From assembly GCF_003334335.1 (NCBI RefSeq), contig NZ_QOWQ01000061.1: 13,768 bases of DNA. One strand, 5' to 3'. The notes beneath the pieces are model-generated. The model worked only from the letters and a program-made list of their open reading frames with translations, had not been told where the DNA came from and made no database searches. Origin of the DNA: Escherichia coli (GTDB lineage Bacteria; Pseudomonadota; Gammaproteobacteria; Enterobacterales; Enterobacteriaceae). The number at the start of each line of letters is the position of its first letter. The first letter of the stretch is position 1. A program made the position numbers and the translations under genes. This document shows, one piece after another, positions 1,574 through 13,768 of the stretch.

Positions 1574-1601
1574 GCCCGTACTTTCGTACGAGCTCTTCTT
1601 T
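1574..1601. terminator. Hairpin flanked by an A8 run on one side and a T-rich run on the other; possible bidirectional intrinsic terminator
   Basis: Stem GCCCGTAC (1574-1581) / GTACGAGC (1586-1593) with one mismatch, loop TTTC, preceded by AAAAAAAA (1566-1573) and followed by TCTTCTTT. Read on the minus strand it is a hairpin followed by U8, the stronger terminator orientation. Confidence 0.4.
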
Positions 1602-1636
1602 AAATATGGCGGTGAGGGGGACCGCCTGAAATAAAT

Positions 1637-1664
1637 CTGACTTAATCCAGGGGTGTTATATAAT
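1637..1664 (+). promoter_or_regulatory. Candidate sigma70-like promoter upstream of the integrase gene
   Basis: -35-like CTGACT (1637-1642), 16-bp spacer, perfect -10 TATAAT (1659-1664), about 115 bp upstream of the int start. Sequence match only, no expression evidence. Confidence 0.25.
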
Positions 1665-1780
1665 TTCATTATAAACAATGTATTACACTTTTTGTTGTCC
1701 GATATTATCTAATGTATTCTTAGTGAAGCGAGAGACTAATGGCATACTGGATGGCATACCAGAGTGACGGGAATTAGCGT

Positions 1781-2983
1781 ATGGCAGTATTGACGGATAC
1801 GAAAGCAAGACATATCAAACCTGATGACAAACCATTGCCCCATGGGGGAATTACCGGACTGACCCTTCATCCTTCTTCAGTAAAGGGGCGGGGGAAATGG
1901 GTTTTTCGTTATGTAAGTCCGGTGACACAAAAAAGACGTAATGCTGGATTGGGAACTTACCCAGAGGTCAGTATTGCTGAAGCTGCACGTACTGCCCGGA
2001 TAATGCGAGAGCAACTTGCTGCAGGTGATGATCCTCTGGAGATTAAAAAGGCTGAATCTGAGAAAGTCGCTATCCCAACATTTGCCGATGCAGCCAGGCG
2101 TGTACATGCAGAACTGTCTCCTGGATGGGAAAATCCAAAGCATGTAAGGCAGTGGTTATCGACGCTTGAGAATTACGCGTTTCCTCAACTGGGAGCAAAA
2201 ACGCTGGATTCGATTACGGCTGCGGACGTGGCAGAAACACTGCGTCCAGTCTGGTTAACCTTGTCAGAAACGGCAAGCCGGGTTAAACAGCGCATTCATG
2301 TTGTTATGCAGTGGGGATGGGCGCACGGTTTTTGTGTAGCAAATCCTGTTGATGTGGTTGACCATTTGCTTCCTCAGCAGACAAGAGGACGTGATGAACA
2401 CCAACCCGCAATGCCCTGGAGGCAGTTACCGCTTTTTGTGGCGACCAGTGTGTATACCGATGAACCTTATAATGTTACCCGCGCACTGTTATTAATGGTG
2501 ATACTTACAGCAACTCGCTCGGGCGAAGCCAGGGGAATGCGCTGGGCTGAAATTGATTTTCATAAGCGGGTATGGACTATACCTGCAGAAAGAATGAAAG
2601 CTAGGCTACAGCATCGTGTTCCTTTATCCCGGCAGGCTATTTACATTCTGGAAAATATACGTGGCCTGCATGATGAACTGGTGTTCCCTTCACCCAGAAA
2701 GCAGCAGATCCTTTCCGATATGGTGTTGACAAGTTTTCTGCGTAAAAAGAAAGCCGTCAGTGACATTCCGGGGCGAGTTGCCACGGCACATGGTTTTCGC
2801 TCAACATTCAGGGACTGGTGTAGCGAACAGGGGTATTCGCGGGATCTGGCGGAAAGGGCGCTCGCTCATACGCTGAAAAATAAGGTTGAGGCGGCATATC
2901 ATCGTACTGATCTACTGGAGCAGCGTGTACCGATGATGCAGGCATGGGCGGATTATGTGATGTCTCAAATTGTGAATAAATAA
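1781..2983 (+). CDS. int: Tyrosine recombinase, P4-family (CP4-57 IntA-like) integrase
   Basis: 400-aa ORF. N-terminus has the typical P4-type integrase arm-binding region (LTDTKARHIKPDDKP...GKWVFRY...). C-terminus carries the catalytic signature (TRSGEARGMRWAEID, HGFRSTFRDW, catalytic Tyr in AAYHRTD). Family assignment from motif recognition, not a search. Confidence 0.93.
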   Translation: MAVLTDTKARHIKPDDKPLPHGGITGLTLHPSSVKGRGKWVFRYVSPVTQKRRNAGLGTYPEVSIAEAARTARIMREQLAAGDDPLEIKKAESEKVAIPTFADAARRVHAELSPGWENPKHVRQWLSTLENYAFPQLGAKTLDSITAADVAETLRPVWLTLSETASRVKQRIHVVMQWGWAHGFCVANPVDVVDHLLPQQTRGRDEHQPAMPWRQLPLFVATSVYTDEPYNVTRALLLMVILTATRSGEARGMRWAEIDFHKRVWTIPAERMKARLQHRVPLSRQAIYILENIRGLHDELVFPSPRKQQILSDMVLTSFLRKKKAVSDIPGRVATAHGFRSTFRDWCSEQGYSRDLAERALAHTLKNKVEAAYHRTDLLEQRVPMMQAWADYVMSQIVNK

Positions 2984-3114
2984 TAGTGAAAATGTATATT
3001 GTACGATCATGATTTGATATGTGATCGTAGCAGTAGTAATTAAGAAACCGCTTTTATGTCAAATGTATTGAGCTGATAATTATCAGATCGTCAGGAAAGC
3101 GTATTTTGATTAAC

Positions 3115-3142
3115 AGGGGATTACTTAACAATCCCCTTTTTA
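3115..3142 (+). terminator. Rho-independent terminator-like hairpin in the int / 605-aa gene convergent intergenic region
   Basis: Stem AGGGGATT (3115-3122) / AATCCCCT (3130-3137), 7-nt loop, followed by TTTTT (3137-3141). Lies between the convergent int (+) and 605-aa (-) genes. Confidence 0.5.
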
Positions 3143-3169
3143 TAAAAAATAATTTGCCTGTTTAACTCT

Positions 3170-4987
3170 TCACTCCTGCTGAGACTGAATTATTCCTAGT
3201 GCGTCATAAATCAGTCTTCTGCGTAGTTTATTGTTTTTATCTGCACCATATAACATAAATATATTTTCAACTTTTTCTTCAGGTGTTCTGAGATAATGGA
3301 TAAGAAAGGTTATCATTCCAACACAATGGAATAAAGTGAATCCATCAAACAGGCTTATCAGGTTTCCTTTTTTTTCCCGTGTTGTAAGTATTTTTTCGCG
3401 GGTAAGAATATTTGCCAGTTCATGGGGGGCTGATATGTTTCTGCTGTCTATAATGTCATTTATTTTACCAAGGGCTATATCAACTTCCTGTAATAGGTTA
3501 TTTATCATAGCTGAGTGAATGTTATTGGTTTCATGTTCCTGACAGTTTATGAACTTATAAATCATTGAGTTATACAGAAATATTACTCTTCCTAATAAAT
3601 ATGTGTTTGTGTCATTTTGAAGACAGGACTCTGGGTATTCGTGATCCAGTGAAATAAGGTTAATGGACTCGCCCTGATAAGTCATAAAATAATTGATGTC
3701 ATTTAATAATGCTCGGATATTTACATGATTTTTACTGAATTTTATTTTAAATGCTATCTTTAGTATAGCAAACGCGGCAATGATAAATCCAAAAGGTAAT
3801 TTCTCATAGTTCAGTTTATTGATGGTGCGATGAACACTTTCAGTCTTTCCTGAAGTAAGTTGTCTCAAACAGTTAACAAATTCTGTATAGCCATTTAAGA
3901 CATAATGGCATGAAGAATCTTTTAAAGAGTTTTCTATGTTTTGTAATGTGACGCCGTTGTTCAATGTATAAATGTAACCGCCAAAGACAATGTTTTCAAT
4001 CTCAACGACACAATTTATTGTTTTTTGTTCAGGATAAAGATAAATATCAGAAATACTATAGTCTCGTATTGCGTCAATGGCATCCCACGATAATGCACTG
4101 TCAATTTTCAGTGTATAAAATGGTGAGTTCTCATTAGGAAAGTAATATATGTATTTGTTCAGTATATTCATTACATCTATTGGGTTGGTTAAATATAATA
4201 ACTGGCATTCATATTCTGAAACTTCTCTTTCGCTTATCAGCATTTTATATAAAGTTGCCAGGGTGCTTGTTAATGAAGTTCGTCTTTCGAAAGCCAGTAA
4301 TATAGTGAGATAATAACATGCAACCTGAACTTTATCTAAGTCAGAAATTATTTTTTCCTTGTCTTCATTACTTAAATAAAGCAGATGTTTACAGGTTTCT
4401 TTGCATGTGTTGATAGTTGCGATAAGTTTTGTTTTTCCTGGTGTACTGTTTTTGCGAATATTACGAATGAATTCATATACGCCATCAAAGATATCTTTGA
4501 AATGCGCATTCGCTGGCGTGTATCCGGATAAACATAACTTAACGTAATTTCGCAGATATGTCCTTGCAGCATGATATATATCATCCTCATTATCCGGTAT
4601 CTGAGTGAGAAAAGAATGAATATGATAGTAAAATGCCATCTCATTATCCGGGCGATATGTGTTCCTGATGTCGAGTGCGAGAATCATTGGTACAATGTCA
4701 TTAAAATATTTTTGTTTTATTATTTGATGTGTTTTGTCTGTAAAAACAGAATAGTGCATTAGCTTAACATAGAGATCTTCATATCTCCTAAATATAACTT
4801 TTCGTTGTTCTTTACTCAATACTTGTTCTTTATCAATAATGTTTATTAATTCATCAAACATGTCGCCCAGTGAATGTTGATGTGAGGAAAAATTTTTAAT
4901 ATTTCGGATGTCACGGCTATTCTGGTTTTTAGCCAGAACACCAAAACATGAAAAGACATCATACATTATAGTGATAAAATTATACAT
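3170..4987 (-). CDS. Hypothetical protein, 605 aa, no recognisable family; AT-rich orphan cargo gene
   Basis: Long uninterrupted minus-strand ORF. Strong SD (AAGGAGA) 5 nt upstream of the ATG at 4987 (minus-strand sense). Codon usage markedly more AT-rich than int or the 1083-aa gene (by eye). One predicted hydrophobic helix (KLPFGFIIAAFAILKIAFKI). I recognise no catalytic motif. Confidence 0.8.
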   Translation of the reverse strand: MYNFITIMYDVFSCFGVLAKNQNSRDIRNIKNFSSHQHSLGDMFDELINIIDKEQVLSKEQRKVIFRRYEDLYVKLMHYSVFTDKTHQIIKQKYFNDIVPMILALDIRNTYRPDNEMAFYYHIHSFLTQIPDNEDDIYHAARTYLRNYVKLCLSGYTPANAHFKDIFDGVYEFIRNIRKNSTPGKTKLIATINTCKETCKHLLYLSNEDKEKIISDLDKVQVACYYLTILLAFERRTSLTSTLATLYKMLISEREVSEYECQLLYLTNPIDVMNILNKYIYYFPNENSPFYTLKIDSALSWDAIDAIRDYSISDIYLYPEQKTINCVVEIENIVFGGYIYTLNNGVTLQNIENSLKDSSCHYVLNGYTEFVNCLRQLTSGKTESVHRTINKLNYEKLPFGFIIAAFAILKIAFKIKFSKNHVNIRALLNDINYFMTYQGESINLISLDHEYPESCLQNDTNTYLLGRVIFLYNSMIYKFINCQEHETNNIHSAMINNLLQEVDIALGKINDIIDSRNISAPHELANILTREKILTTREKKGNLISLFDGFTLFHCVGMITFLIHYLRTPEEKVENIFMLYGADKNNKLRRRLIYDALGIIQSQQE

Positions 4988-5127
4988 AACATTCTCCTTT
5001 TATTGCACTATATAAAATTTTAACATTATATCATTTTGCTTTTCTGTTAACTGGTTTTCATTTTTGAATCAATATTTTCTGAACAGGGTAATAGTACACG
5101 TATTAACAGATTATGTCAGAAGGCCCC

Positions 5128-5890
5128 GGTGATGCCTTCTGACGATAGATTAATGTTGTATTCTATTGGTATCTGGAGACCATATGGCAACAGTTACAGT
5201 ATATTCTCCCCGCTGTAATTCCTATAAAGTGTACCGTTATGATCACAGCACCTCAGATCATGAGCGTTTCCAGTGCTAATCCTGCAAACGTGTATTTCAA
5301 CTGAATTACATCTACGAAACCCGAAAACCAGGCATTAAAGAGCAAATTGTTGAAATGGTTCATAACGGAGCCGGGGTTCGCGATAGCTCCAGAACGCTGA
5401 AGGTGGATATCAACACCGTCATTCTCACTTTAAAAAACGCTCACCACGTAAAGTAACCATATCTCCAGCCGCCAGTGTCGATGTGGCACTTATCTGTGAA
5501 CTTGATGAACAATGGAGTTTTGTCGAAAACAAAGCTCGTCAGCAGTGGCACTGGTACGCGTATAAGACCAAAGCTGACGGTGTGCTGGCTTACACTTTTG
5601 GTCCTCGCACTGATGAAACATGCCGTGAGTTGCCGGAATTCCTGAAGCCATTCTCCGCAGGCATGATAACCAGAGACAACCGGAGCAGTTATACCAGAGA
5701 AATGCCACAGGATAAGCATCTTGTCGGCAAGATATTTACCCGGCGCATTGAGCGCAACAATCTGACACTTCGTACTCACATCAAACGACCTGCCCGGAAA
5801 ACGATTTGCTTTTTACGCTCCCTGGAAATTCACGAAAAGCCATTGGTTCATTTATCGAAAACACATGTACTACTGACAGGAGTCATTACC
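5128..5890 (+). mobile_element. IS1-family insertion sequence, about 763 bp, probably inactive
   Basis: Left end GGTGATGCC... at 5128 and right end ...GGAGTCATTACC at 5879-5890 match IS1 terminal inverted repeats. Internal insA/insB-like ORFs with the conserved A6C frameshift motif (5432-5438). Element length matches IS1 (768 bp). No clean 9-bp target-site duplication seen. Confidence 0.8.
5184..5456 (+). pseudogene. insA: IS1-family insA with an in-frame premature stop
   Basis: Translation MATVTVYSPRCNSYKVYRYDHSTSDHERFQC*SCKRVFQLNYIYETRKPGIKEQIVEMVHNGAGVRDSSRTLKVDINTVILTLKNAHHVK aligns to IS1 InsA, but an in-frame TAA at 5277-5279 falls inside the zinc-finger region. Confidence 0.75.
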
Positions 5891-5920
5891 AGGGCCTCTT
5901 TTGCTGTTTTTTTGCCATGA
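5483..5920 (+). CDS. insB: IS1-family InsB-like transposase segment; reading frame runs past the right inverted repeat
   Basis: Translation (ICELDEQWSFVENKARQQWHWYAYK...TRRIERNNLTLRTHIKRPARK...) aligns to IS1 InsB ([26 protein letters not shown]...[21 protein letters not shown]). Frame is -1 relative to insA, as in IS1. The ORF continues 30 nt beyond the IS end at 5890, so the native stop appears lost. Confidence 0.7.
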   Translation: MALICELDEQWSFVENKARQQWHWYAYKTKADGVLAYTFGPRTDETCRELPEFLKPFSAGMITRDNRSSYTREMPQDKHLVGKIFTRRIERNNLTLRTHIKRPARKTICFLRSLEIHEKPLVHLSKTHVLLTGVITRASFAVFLP

Positions 5921-6086
5921 ATGATAATGAGAATCGACAGCGATAAGGGAAAAGTAAAATAACACTAATGCTGTTGTTTTCTATCATATTGATTTTTAAT
6001 TATTTATTGTCTTTTTTCTCAACCCATTTTTTTACGCAGACAAATTTACCCGGGGAATACAAACTGTAACGACAGTTCACCACACT

Positions 6087-6395
6087 ATGGGGGATAAAAT
6101 GCCAGATCAATCCGGACACTGCAGGACTCCTTCACGCATCTTACGGATGCCTGAACTGAGCCAATTGTTAGGTATATCTCGTTCGACAATTTACGAAAAA
6201 ATGAATCCGTTATCGAAATACTACGATGCAACCTTCCCCAGGCCGGTACGTCTTGGTAGTGGTTCTGTGGGCTGGCGTTCATCAGCTATTGACGAATGGC
6301 TTACTTTACATACTGTACCTGCCAGATCAGCAGTCAAAGGTGTTAATGACGAAGTGAGACATACGCTTTCTTCAGATATGACCATGAGCAGATAA
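6087..6395 (+). CDS. alpA: AlpA-family (prophage CP4-57 regulatory protein-like) DNA-binding regulator / excisionase-like protein
   Basis: Motifs ILRMPELSQLLGISRSTIYEKMNP and YDATFPRPVRLGSGSVGWRSSAIDEWL match the AlpA helix-turn-helix family. The likely true start is the ATG at 6099, preceded by GGGGGA. Confidence 0.85.
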   Translation: MGDKMPDQSGHCRTPSRILRMPELSQLLGISRSTIYEKMNPLSKYYDATFPRPVRLGSGSVGWRSSAIDEWLTLHTVPARSAVKGVNDEVRHTLSSDMTMSR

Positions 6396-6477
6396 GTTTT
6401 TGTCATCACGTGATCACCTCAGGAGGAAAAAGAAGCATAAGAACAATTTAGCCAGAAGTTTAATTGATAAACAGAAT

Positions 6478-6830
6478 TTCCAGCATTCATTGTTGAAAGA
6501 GCAGCTATTGTCGCTATTGTAGCGGTAATTGCTGCTATAACCGAAACGTATTACGAAAAAGGAAGCATTTATGCCTTACATCAAACCGGATATGCCGTAT
6601 TCAGTATATGCATGACCATCAATGATAGGGAAGGCAATAATTAAAGCTCAATACAATAAACAAGTACCTCTGACTCTGGTTGCAATGTCAGTATTAACAG
6701 CGATGTCAATTGCCTGTCAGAATCAGGTTGACGTATGCAGTCCCGGAAATTTACGTGGGGCCGTTAATATTTACACTATGGTTCTGGAGAAAGGGAAAAG
6801 ACCGGGGGAAAGGTATTAGTGAAATAATTT
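6478..6830 (+). repeat. Direct repeat copy 1: diverged duplicate of the promoter-proximal and 5' coding region of the yfjI-like gene
   Basis: Aligns by eye over about 330 bp with 6958-7310, including the shared motif AGCAGCTATTGTCGCTATTGTAGCGG and the coding stretch CAATTGCCTGTCAGAATCAG(G/A)TTGACGTATGCAG. I estimate roughly 75-80% identity (not computed). Confidence 0.7.
6571..6819 (+). pseudogene. Degenerate duplicated 5' fragment of the yfjI-like gene
   Basis: ATG at 6571 gives MPYIKPDMPYSVYA* and then, after a 1-nt indel relative to copy 2, a second frame (6622-6819) encodes ...QVPLTLVAMSVLTAMSIACQNQVDVCSPGNLRGAVNIYT, paralogous to QAPLAMVATSALTAISIACQNQIDVCRPGNLHGPVNLYS of the intact gene. 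Confidence 0.55.
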
Positions 6831-6957
6831 CTGGAGGTATTAAGAATGAGAAATATGAATGATATTTCGTGGTGAATAATACAGTCTTCACTGAATTAAC
6901 CTTATCGGTTTATTAAACATCAGATCTACAAATGCTCTGTATTTCTCAGAGCATCAG

Positions 6958-7310
6958 GTCTGAATAGCAGCTATTTTCGCTATTGTAGCGGGATTTGCTG
7001 CTATTTTACTAACCCATTAATGAAAAGAGAGGCTTTTATGTGCTTACTTGCACCAGAAAATCCTTATCCGATATATGCACTACCACCGCTGGTGAGAAAT
7101 GCAATAATTGAAACTCAAAAAAATACACAGGCACCTTTGGCTATGGTGGCAACATCCGCATTAACAGCGATCTCAATTGCCTGTCAGAATCAGATTGACG
7201 TATGCAGACCTGGAAATTTACATGGGCCTGTTAATCTTTACTCTCTGATTCTGGCTGATTCCGGTGAAAGGAAAACGACCGTGGATAAAGTGTTTATGAA
7301 AGCATTTTAT
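6958..7310 (+). repeat. Direct repeat copy 2: the intact promoter-proximal and 5' region of the yfjI-like gene
   Basis: Partner of copy 1 at 6478-6830; this copy is continuous with the long ORF starting at 7020/7038. Confidence 0.7.
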
Positions 7311-8177
7311 CTCAGGGATGAAGCCCTGGCGGAAGAATACGCGAAACTGGTTGAGAATTACAGTACAGAAAAGGAAATATGGGAGCAAAAACAAAAAGCG
7401 CTGGAATCAAAATTTCATAAAGAGATTCGTGCCGGTAAAGATTACAAGGCAACAGAATCAGAGCTTGAAACGCATCTGAATAAACCTCCTGTTCCGCCGC
7501 AGATACGTCGAACAATTTTTAATGAGACAACGATAGAGGGAATGTTAAAATATTACTCCGATAGCAATCGCTCTTTTGCTCTTGTATCCAGTGAAGGGGG
7601 GGTAATTTTTGACAGCCGGGCCATGAGTAAACTGGGAATTATTAACACTTTGTGGGATGGAGGTTCTCTTTTCATCGACAGGAAATCATCTCCCGGAATT
7701 AATTTGAAGGAGCCAAGACTGACGATATCGGTGATGATTCAGCCTGATGTTTACCACAAAGGTTTTTGTACGCGAAAAAAAGAAATTGTGAAAACGTCAG
7801 GACATCATGCAAGGTTTTTGATGTGTCAACCAACATCAACGCAGGGGACAAGGATAATAACCGGAGATAATTATTCATCACAGTATCAGGATTTGTTTGA
7901 AGAGAGGATCAATGAGCTTATTGATGAAAGTCTGGCGATGAGTGGTGAACGACGTTGCCTTCACTTTTCTCCTCAGGCTGCCAGAATCTGGACGGATTAT
8001 TACAATGATGTGGAATCGAAGCTGGGGGGATTGGGGCCTTTAAGACATTGCCGGGAATATGCTGCTAAAAATGCAGAGTATATGGCAAGACTGGCAGGAC
8101 TTATTTACCATTCGAGCGGGGGAGATTTCCCCTTACACTGCAGAAATGGCGAGAGAATTAGCAATATGGTACGGTAA
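7020..8177 (+). CDS. yfjI-like (DUF3987-type, putative replication-associated) protein, N-terminal 385 aa; frame interrupted near the 3' end
   Basis: Long ORF in the position occupied by yfjI after alpA in CP4-57-type islands. SD-like AAGAGAGG precedes the internal ATG at 7038, the more likely start. The reading frame continues in another frame (8059-8463) after a G5 tract. DUF3987 assignment is from genomic context and memory, not a search. Confidence 0.7.
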   Translation: MKREAFMCLLAPENPYPIYALPPLVRNAIIETQKNTQAPLAMVATSALTAISIACQNQIDVCRPGNLHGPVNLYSLILADSGERKTTVDKVFMKAFYLRDEALAEEYAKLVENYSTEKEIWEQKQKALESKFHKEIRAGKDYKATESELETHLNKPPVPPQIRRTIFNETTIEGMLKYYSDSNRSFALVSSEGGVIFDSRAMSKLGIINTLWDGGSLFIDRKSSPGINLKEPRLTISVMIQPDVYHKGFCTRKKEIVKTSGHHARFLMCQPTSTQGTRIITGDNYSSQYQDLFEERINELIDESLAMSGERRCLHFSPQAARIWTDYYNDVESKLGGLGPLRHCREYAAKNAEYMARLAGLIYHSSGGDFPLHCRNGERISNMVR

Positions 8178-8463
8178 TGAGTATGTGCGGTTGTCTAATC
8201 CGTTAACTTTTGACAACTCTGCCCTGACCGTACCTGTGCGACTCATTCCAGAGGAGCTTGAACTTTTCAACTGGATAAAAAGCTATTGTATTGAGAAGGG
8301 GATCCTCTGTATGAAAAAAAATGACATTTTACAGCGTGGTCCGAACCGTTTCCGGAAAAAGGATAAAATCAACTGGTTACTGGATTTACTGTATGAACAA
8401 AACAGAGTTGTACCGGTTATTGAGGGAAAAACGTTGTGTGTCGCACCTAACTTTGACCTCTGA
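8059..8463 (+). CDS. C-terminal segment of the yfjI-like protein in a shifted frame
   Basis: Overlaps the previous ORF by 119 nt in a different frame; no independent RBS. Combined length (about 480 aa) is what I expect for a yfjI-family protein. Confidence 0.55.
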   Translation: MLLKMQSIWQDWQDLFTIRAGEISPYTAEMARELAIWYGNEYVRLSNPLTFDNSALTVPVRLIPEELELFNWIKSYCIEKGILCMKKNDILQRGPNRFRKKDKINWLLDLLYEQNRVVPVIEGKTLCVAPNFDL

Positions 8464-8486
8464 ACGACTTAATCGTTGAGTTCATA

Positions 8487-8517
8487 TAGTCTCCTCTGCT
8501 ACTTGCGGAGGAGACTA
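8487..8517 (+). terminator. Perfect 10-bp stem-loop immediately downstream of the yfjI-like gene; possible terminator or protein-binding hairpin
   Basis: TAGTCTCCTC (8487-8496) pairs with GAGGAGACTA (8508-8517), 11-nt loop. Downstream sequence is only moderately T-rich, so it is not a canonical intrinsic terminator. Confidence 0.35.
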
Positions 8518-8518
8518 A

Positions 8519-9283
8519 TGTCTTTACCATGTCAGCGTTGTATTAGAAAACTCTGGTACAGGTCAGTCAGTAAATATAACTGGTGTAACCACTATTTACT
8601 ATTGGATAGAGTGTTGCTCAGGATATTGTCGGCTTTAGTCTGAGGTGAGGTGGGGCCTTCATTGTTTTCGTGTTCAATAAATAATTTAGGTTAATTAGTA
8701 TTATTAGTGGAAGTTATGTGATCTGTTATGTTGTCTTGTACGCACTTAACACTGGTTACGTACCGGAACACTATTAGAGTATGTTATGGCTCTGTTACAG
8801 TTTATAGGTATGAAAAAATATAATCTTTCCTGTATGAAATAATATTCTTATGGTGTGTGGGGTATGGTCTGTATACCATCATTTTTATGGTGAAGTTAAA
8901 TATCTGTAGAGGCCTTAAGCTGGGTCGCTGTTTTTACTTAATGGTACAGAAGTATTAATAGCGGTGTTGCCTGTGGCTACCCGATACTGGCTTTTGTGAA
9001 TGTCAGATTACTTCCTGTAAGTGATTGAATGGTACTTCCTTAAACTCAATTCTATGAGGTGTGTTTTTACCATTGTAATTCGTACTGGTCCTCAGTTTAA
9101 GTGAGTCTTACTGTACTCTGAAATATTACCTCTTTGGAGTAATGAGGTAATACGAAACAGTTTTATCAGGTTGTCTGTGCTGCTGGTTACCTCGTTTATT
9201 AATGCCGCGGTACGGCGTTTCTGTACTCTCAGTATTTATGTAATTCCACCTTCCTGTAACTTTTATAAAGTAAGGACTATAAA
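8519..9283. other. ORF-free AT-rich region with short repeated motifs and hairpins; candidate replication origin / regulatory region
   Basis: No ORF of 60 aa or more in any frame across about 820 bp. Repeated TTCCTGTA (8826, 9012, 9250), CTGTACTCT (9111, 9221), TGTTATG (8715, 8725, 8782). Inverted repeat TATTACCTC/GAGGTAATA (9124-9151). Sits directly upstream of the HUH Rep-like gene. Confidence 0.3.
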
Positions 9284-9847
9284 ATGTATAATGCTAATCC
9301 CAATTACGAAATGGACTTCATGATTCTGAAAGACGTGAATGAACACATGGAAGGTCTGTTTCAACGTTTTTCTAAACTGTTACCTTTCAGAATTGATTTT
9401 GCCTACAGGAAAGACACGCCCAGTTTTGGTCATTCCTGTAGGCACAGTATGTGTATTGAAATGCACCGCTTACTTAGTGAAACCCAAACGATGCTGGCGG
9501 GATATTACTGGGTAATGGAATATACGTCAAACAAGGGACTTCATATTCATTTTATCGGCTACTTGGATGGGCAACGTCACAAGAAATTTTATCGGATATC
9601 CAGGCAACTGGGAGATATCTGGAGTCGGATCACGGAAGGGGAGGGTTATTTTCACCTGTGCAGTACTAAAGACAAATACCCGGTGCGTATCGATCACGTG
9701 ATTCACTATAGTGATAAGTCTGCGGTAGACGGTTTACGTTACGCCCTTAGCTACCTGGCTAAACAGGAGCAGAAAGAACACGGTATTATTCTGATGCGTA
9801 GCAGACTTCCCGAAAAAAGTAACCGCGGCCGACCACGACACAACTGA
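9284..9847 (+). CDS. YagK/YfjJ (inovirus Gp2)-family protein with HUH-type motifs; putative rolling-circle Rep-like initiator
   Basis: 187-aa ORF with an HUH-like motif LHIHFIGY and a downstream tyrosine motif YALSYLAK (YxxK-like). Occupies the position of yfjJ in CP4-57-like islands. Shorter than I would expect for this family. Confidence 0.65.
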   Translation: MYNANPNYEMDFMILKDVNEHMEGLFQRFSKLLPFRIDFAYRKDTPSFGHSCRHSMCIEMHRLLSETQTMLAGYYWVMEYTSNKGLHIHFIGYLDGQRHKKFYRISRQLGDIWSRITEGEGYFHLCSTKDKYPVRIDHVIHYSDKSAVDGLRYALSYLAKQEQKEHGIILMRSRLPEKSNRGRPRHN

Positions 9848-10355
9848 ATTACAGCTGTATTAGAATTAAGTTTCCGTAAGTTGTTGGGAGGTGCTTGAGT
9901 TAATAGGCAGTAGAGGGGGCGCTGTAATCAGTGTAGGGGACCCGAATTTCTGCTGTGGTGCTTCAGTGGTTCGGATACAGGTAACGAATATGGTTCATAA
10001 ATCTGACAGTGATGAATTAGCAGCACTGAGGGAAGACATCACTTGAAGCTTATGGGATTGAATGGCGACGTAAACCGCAGAGTCCTGTGCAGTGCGTTTC
10101 CGTATTATCCACGGATGAGAAAGTTGCGTTATTTCGTCGGTTTTTTCGTGGGCGTGGTGATGTATGGGGCCTTCGATGGGAAAGCAAAACCAGCGGCAAA
10201 TCAGGGTACTTGCGGGCCTGTGCTAACGAATGGCAGCCGGGAATAGCGGTAAACTCCGGATAAAATGTGGGGACTGCGCTCACCGTCAGTTGATCCCTGT
10301 ATCTGATCTCATCATCTACCACTACACGGTTTAACGGGGCCGCGTCATCTCGGCG

Positions 10356-10385
10356 TTGCCCGATAAATTCTTTTCTACGTATAAT
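10356..10385 (+). promoter_or_regulatory. Candidate sigma70-like promoter for the 1083-aa gene
   Basis: -35-like TTGCCC (10356-10361), 18-bp spacer, perfect -10 TATAAT (10380-10385), about 110 bp upstream of the start codon. Sequence match only. Confidence 0.3.
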
Positions 10386-10497
10386 AACCAGAATGAACGT
10401 GTAAAACACCATAGTATTCAGAACTATAAACATCGAAACTTGCCATATTGACCAGAATAAATGACCTTATTTTTACTGAAATTTAAGGAGAACACCG

Positions 10498-13768
<3,271 letters not shown>

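Follow-up and report, generated by a model that had tools for sequence, protein, structure and literature searches.

Proteins of the DUF3987 family have been described as SF6, MCM-like proteins with a C-terminal wHTH, and as the probable replicative helicases of phages and mobile elements (PMC4889955). For a PriCT-DUF3987 protein, AgaPH, ATP-dependent 5'-3' helicase activity was demonstrated (PMC11724360). In E. coli, the family is represented in integrative islands and prophage remnants, for example by the 477-aa YfjI family/DUF3987 proteins WP_000335703.1 and WP_000335702.1 and, as more distant relatives of the gene considered here, by the 470-aa YfjI-type proteins of K-12 CP4-57. The window, which is the whole 13,768-nt stretch analyzed from E. 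coli contig NZ_QOWQ01000061.1, is identical to the WP_000335703-type protein over residues 1-361 and 364-477, and differs from that allele in having 8 nt fewer and in being frameshifted. The favored reading, held at a probability of roughly 90%, is that a genuine, recent and lineage-specific 8-nt deletion frameshifted and inactivated the yfjI-family gene of a chromosomal integrative island.

A first-pass annotation had described two overlapping open reading frames as the pieces of one yfjI-like gene, and a run of five Gs within the overlap as the most likely slip site. The overlap was confirmed: the upstream ORF (ORF1, 7020..8177, + strand, 385 aa, or 379 aa from the RefSeq-style start ATG at 7038) and the downstream ORF (ORF2, 8059..8463, + strand, 134 aa) share 119 nt (8059-8177) and lie in frames 0 and +1, respectively (7020 mod 3 = 0, 8059 mod 3 = 1), and the GGGGG occupies exactly 8118-8122. 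The assignment of both ORFs to one yfjI-family protein also held, with the combined pair matching a single intact 477-aa YfjI family protein. The proposed alignment of both frames to the intact protein was carried out, and homology changes frame at residues 361/364. From 7038, ORF1 is identical to residues 1-361 of the WP_000335703-type protein and then continues into 18 wrong-frame residues; ORF2 begins with a 20-aa non-homologous leader, after which it is identical to residues 364-477. There are zero amino-acid substitutions elsewhere in either ORF, and the lack of any other change on both sides of the break indicates that the inactivation is recent. The ORF2 leader is the +1-frame reading of intact codons ~341-360 and not a genuine N-terminus. 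The possibility that the two ORFs are normally separate genes was examined as well, and ~1,360 E. coli alleles and 50 homologues proved to be single-frame. Judged by homology, the ORF pair is one gene, and a chance overlap is excluded. The features of the broken gene are listed here.

7038..8117, + strand: 5' part of yfjI, codons 1-360, frame 0, covering the N-terminal domain and the greater part of the DUF3987/MCM-like AAA+ core; identity to WP_000335703-type residues 1-361, with matches to PF13148 and PHROG 2373
8059..8118, + strand: 20-codon leader of ORF2, MLLKMQSIWQDWQDLFTIRA; only the last 114 ORF2 residues match the intact protein
8117..8119, + strand: deletion junction; a single 8-column gap versus strain LS4 and the only indel versus strain A7
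8118..8122, + strand: G5 run of unchanged length; LS4 counterpart at 8227-8231
8119..8463, + strand: 3' part of yfjI, frame +1, residues 364-477; identical to the intact C-terminus
8120..8177, + strand: out-of-frame tail GDFPLHCRNGERISNMVR and premature TAA at 8175-8177; ORF1 diverges from the intact protein at residue 362 onward
8146..8463, + strand: 105-aa ORF (MARELAIWYG...) reported by gene callers for the orphaned 3' part; called in the Logan contigs from SRR1815430 and SRR27904302
8487..8517, + strand: terminator-like hairpin with a 13-bp stem, just past the normal stop codon at 8461-8463, as called by a consensus scan

The promoter/terminator scan covered 6400-9300, where promoter-like sites occurred at chance level (9 found, 9.0 expected) and the hairpin following the gene was the only notable feature.

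The intact protein was characterized by profile searches, alignment and structure prediction. Pfam DUF3987 (PF13148) matches residues 31-390 of the intact allele over model positions 1-363/364 (E=3.5e-84), essentially a full-length profile match that spans the break, and PHROG 2373 ("DNA helicase") matches residues 9-389 in the intact protein versus 9-357 in the window ORF. A scan of both ORFs and the intact protein against NCBIfam assigned no family, and a sequence search of the PDB found no relative. More than 100 homologues at 23-35% identity were found by database search, most of them 470-530 aa long with 90-100% query coverage, and some bearing N-terminal Toprim or AEP primase fusions. 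Fifty homologues (20-33% identity), picked for high coverage, were aligned with the intact protein to give 51 sequences, and each of the 50 spans the core (31-361) as well as the C-terminal region (405-477) in one polypeptide. R78, K79 and E186 are invariant in the alignment, and at least 90% of the sequences have S75, G76, E77 and T80, so that a Walker A-like S75-G-E-R-K-T80 and an acidic Walker B-like E186 can be recognized, all upstream of the frameshift and retained in the window. R351 is also invariant and is kept in the truncated core, and R442 and L454 are invariant in the C-terminal region. The break site itself corresponds to a variable loop between two helices, the second of which, following the break, shows strong conservation.

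The intact allele was modeled with AlphaFold2 (mean pLDDT 90.2, pTM 0.80). In the model, the core reaches approximately residue 390 and is followed by a disordered linker (394-404) leading into a winged-helix domain (405-477), the latter built of helices 407-423, 430-436 and 444-456 and strands 460-465 and 468-473 in a three-helix plus beta-hairpin arrangement. When the model was compared with the PDB using Foldseek, the top 19 matches at E<=1e-3 were all MCM subunits, with modest TM-scores of 0.3-0.4, and the best match (8x7u_C, E=1.8e-5, prob 1.00) is consistent with an MCM-like AAA+ fold. The intact protein is thus predicted to be a DUF3987, MCM-like AAA+ helicase with a C-terminal winged helix.

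Comparison with intact alleles located the lesion precisely. The window is without 8 nt, GGTGAAGA, between 8117 and 8118; placement is ambiguous by 2 nt within the GG at 8118-8119, and the lost 8-mer may equivalently be given as GTGAAGAG or TGAAGAGG. Pairwise alignment with strain LS4 contains one 8-column gap and no other nearby difference (intact ...TTCGAGC GGTGAAGA GGGGGAGATTTCC... versus window ...TTCGAGC GGGGGAGATTTCC...), and in the alignment with strain A7, the closest complete genome at 99.79% identity, the 8-nt gap is the sole indel in 12,147 nt. Loss of 8 nt shifts the downstream codons into the +1 frame, exactly as seen. The lost 8-mer and the one after it form an imperfect tandem in the intact allele, GGTGAAGA/GGGGGAGA, identical at 6/8 positions, the first copy being the one deleted; this makes a slipped-strand or microhomology-mediated event the likely origin of the deletion. 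From this sequence context, the 8 nt would have been lost through replication slippage or through deletion mediated by the GG microhomology.

The earlier proposal of the G5 run as slip site was right in position, as the break falls within the 119-nt overlap and abuts the run (8117|8118), but not in kind, as the run is unchanged and the lesion is an 8-nt deletion immediately 5' to it. The run has five Gs in both aligned intact alleles, LS4 and A7, these being the two genomes in which its length was read directly. The other homopolymer runs of the gene, G7 (7596), G6 (8024), an A-run of 7 and an A-run of 8, were compared run by run in the one intact allele of LS4 and have the same length there. 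From these alignments, a change in homopolymer length is not the cause of the frameshift. A slip of +/-1 in G5, G6 or G7 was accordingly ruled out, all run lengths matching the intact allele. Also ruled out was an ancestral state for the window, with the 8 nt an insertion elsewhere: with the 8 nt in place there is one continuous frame, and distant homologues keep to this frame through the conserved helix that follows.

The frequency of the two alleles was evaluated by megablast of window positions 6900-8600 against 5,426 complete RefSeq E. coli genomes. The region is present in 1,400 of these, with at least 80% coverage in 1,373; the records annotate one "YfjI family protein" there, and the matched stretch is 1,709 nt in the records versus 1,701 nt in the window. 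In about 1,360 complete E. coli genomes, the 8 nt are present and the YfjI-family protein is encoded intact, as one chain of 477 aa. The top hits of a 100-nt probe centered on the junction had 100% coverage and 92.6% identity, corresponding to 108 nt of the record, and the uniformity of this identity in the top records indicates that the 8-nt gap is the sole difference there. The deletion is absent from the 5,426 genomes (zero gap-free matches to the probe), and exact scans with a 35-mer spanning the junction gave 0 matches in GTDB species representatives and 0 in JGI metagenome contigs. The same megablast comparison showed the yfjI region to be interrupted by IS1B in strain 266917_2 (NZ_CP026723.1) and by IS421 in CRE389 (NZ_CP166759.1), so that in these other lineages an IS element has independently hit this gene or the sequence right beside it.

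A collection of 15 billion proteins contains exact copies of the 379-aa truncated product, in entries derived from Logan assemblies. One Logan contig (SRR1815430, with the same contig recorded in 4 samples) matches window positions 1591-13721 at 100% identity, and another (SRR27904302) matches 6604-9518 at 100% identity, the junction being included in both; in total, separate Logan assemblies of five sequencing runs share the truncated product and agree with the window DNA at 100% identity. The five runs may represent fewer than five independent isolates, and the window itself may derive from one of them. A literature search for both SRA run accessions gave no match.

The first-pass annotation had offered three options for the split, a sequencing or assembly indel, slippage-dependent expression, or a genuine inactivating mutation, and the last of these is supported, in the form of a real 8-nt deletion in a yfjI-family gene. 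An artefact, in which sequencing or assembly lost 8 nt that the DNA actually contains, would suit the rarity of the allele, since errors look like an allele found in none of the complete genomes, GTDB representatives or metagenome contigs. It is nonetheless very unlikely, as the Logan assemblies of five SRA runs are identical in sequence, with the same junction appearing in the separate assemblies of SRR1815430 and SRR27904302. Additionally, an 8-nt loss outside a homopolymer is atypical of platform error, an 8-nt repeat with 6/8 identity is much too short to mislead an assembler, and there are zero further indels in 12 kb relative to the nearest genome. Together, the separate assemblies from several runs, the non-homopolymer nature of the loss and the otherwise clean sequence argue strongly that the deletion is a real, lineage-specific mutation. 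Restoration of the full-length protein by ribosomal or transcriptional slippage, at the G5 or elsewhere in the overlap, or use of the tract as a phase-variation switch, is scarcely credible, even though the G5 lies inside the overlap and the frames would be reunited by a +1 shift at any point of 8118-8174. A programmed frameshift calls for a site and a two-frame architecture conserved among homologues, but the split is missing from ~1,360 E. coli genomes and 50 distant homologues, all comparators being single-frame, and none of the known +1 frameshift motifs is evident. A phase-variable locus calls for a tract whose length varies between strains, but the G5 does not differ in length from that of the intact alleles (LS4 and A7), and the lesion is one of 8 nt, unlike a +/-1 change. 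The G5 is also shorter than the tracts known for efficient slippage.

A further alternative accepts the deletion and holds that its products are functional, the truncated core cooperating with the separately initiated 105-aa winged-helix fragment (ATG at 8146), or the core alone serving as a selected dominant-negative that immobilizes the island. Both pieces are called by gene callers, the core retains the conserved Walker-type residues and R351, and the exact 105-aa sequence occurs on 334 contigs. However, the 105-aa ORF is also called where the gene is broken in another way, as by the IS1 insertion in strain 266917_2 and by IS421 in CRE389, and because it is called in genomes with unrelated disruptions, its frequency reflects repeated breakage of the gene and not a conserved split. 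No Shine-Dalgarno-like sequence is evident on reading the sequence ahead of 8146, the conserved helix 368-389 is severed from the core, and the split architecture is found in 0 homologues; cooperation of the pieces or a selected immobilizing core is highly improbable. In its broader form, the truncation would be a selected event that grounded the island, with a core lacking its winged helix acting as a dominant-negative or together with the 105-aa fragment, and with repeated hits in the gene explained by an advantage in silencing island replication; this too is to be regarded as most doubtful. Inactivation by a genuine, recent deletion is thus retained as the reading of the locus.

Given such a deletion, translation from ATG 7038 would produce 361 native residues and 18 wrong-frame residues before stopping at 8175. 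The expected product would be an MCM-like (SF6) AAA+ helicase core without its last lid helix, linker and C-terminal winged helix, and the remaining 114 codons would be orphaned in the +1 frame. In terms of the model, the frameshift follows helix 336-359, and the last lid helix (368-389), the linker (394-404) and the winged helix (405-477) are lost. A single polypeptide with core and C-terminal winged helix is encoded by the intact allele and by 50 of 50 homologues, but not by the window, and with these two parts in separate frames, the window allele is a pseudogene of the family and not an intact member. Loss of function would be the expected outcome, judging from the conservation of the lost part, although the truncated core, which retains its Walker motifs and the invariant R351, might still be partly active or act as a dominant-negative.

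The gene lies in an island that adjoins ycdU, with the order int, AlpA-like HTH, yfjI, gp2-like and Mokosh mkoA. The other features of the island are as follows.

1781-2983: tyrosine integrase
3170-4987, - strand: 605-aa conserved hypothetical protein beside the integrase; no PADLOC match, and no functional annotation in RefSeq records
~5184-5920: IS1 remnant, a frameshifted partial transposase, from the RefSeq annotation of two syntenic loci
6087-6395: AlpA-like HTH regulator
6622-6819, + strand: 65-aa DUF3987 N-terminal fragment, 57% identical to YfjI residues 18-78; PHROG 2373, E=1.6e-6
9284-9847: inovirus-Gp2-type protein
~10000-10335: TOTE conflict-system archaeo-eukaryotic (AEP) primase pseudogene fragment, from the RefSeq annotation of the same two syntenic loci
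10498-13692, + strand: Mokosh type I MkoA homologue ("AAA domain" gene); PADLOC PDLC03921, E=0, profile positions 1-1025 of 1607
13693-13768: end of an IS100kyp element (IS21-family, istB end), which cuts mkoA at 13692|13693

Strains LS4 and A7 have the same island context as the window, comprising int, the hypothetical protein, the IS1 remnant, the HTH regulator, the DUF3987 fragment, yfjI, the gp2-type gene, the TOTE primase fragment and AAA/MkoA. By its similarity to YfjI, the 65-aa ORF is a leftover of a second DUF3987/YfjI-type gene, situated ~200 nt upstream of yfjI; its annotation in LS4 and A7 as well marks it as an older, shared remnant. The junction of mkoA with IS100kyp is present in 0 complete RefSeq E. 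coli genomes, and the MkoA defense gene is probably inactivated in the window's lineage. In this lineage, the island has suffered two private lesions, in yfjI and mkoA, atop older decay that is common to other strains. At its left edge, a 75-nt stretch (1546-1620) is present once in the window and as two copies ~106 nt apart in strain A7, where RefSeq annotates an RtT sRNA-like repeat. An ARAGORN scan found no tRNA in the window, so the attachment site of the island is no obvious tRNA.

For annotation, these findings mean that the ORF pair should be recorded as one pseudogene, a frameshifted YfjI family protein, rather than as two genes, and that the proper description of the lesion is an 8-nt deletion which, being no homopolymer error, should not be "corrected" by polishing. 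The yfjI deletion and the IS100 insertion in mkoA can serve together as a lineage marker for the strain's island. The deletion suggests an island that is no longer able to provide a helicase of its own; it raises no new biological question.

In comparison with known systems, the intact allele has in common with the SF6 MCM-like helicases (AgaPH, PMC11724360; the phage DUF3987 proteins, PMC4889955) the DUF3987 domain, the GERKT motif, E186, the MCM fold and the C-terminal winged helix. The window differs from the mobile-element helicases of this group in having no fused or adjacent intact primase, with only the TOTE AEP-primase pseudogene fragment downstream, and in that the end of the lid and the winged helix are severed in its allele. 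The broken gene resembles the ordinary small-deletion pseudogenes of decaying prophages and islands and has nothing distinctive beside them: one indel, located at a short direct repeat, throws a replication gene of a mobile element out of frame. The companion decay is also alike, consisting of the IS1 remnant, the DUF3987 fragment, the primase fragment and the IS100 in mkoA. The yfjI allele of the window is an ordinary, recent pseudogene.
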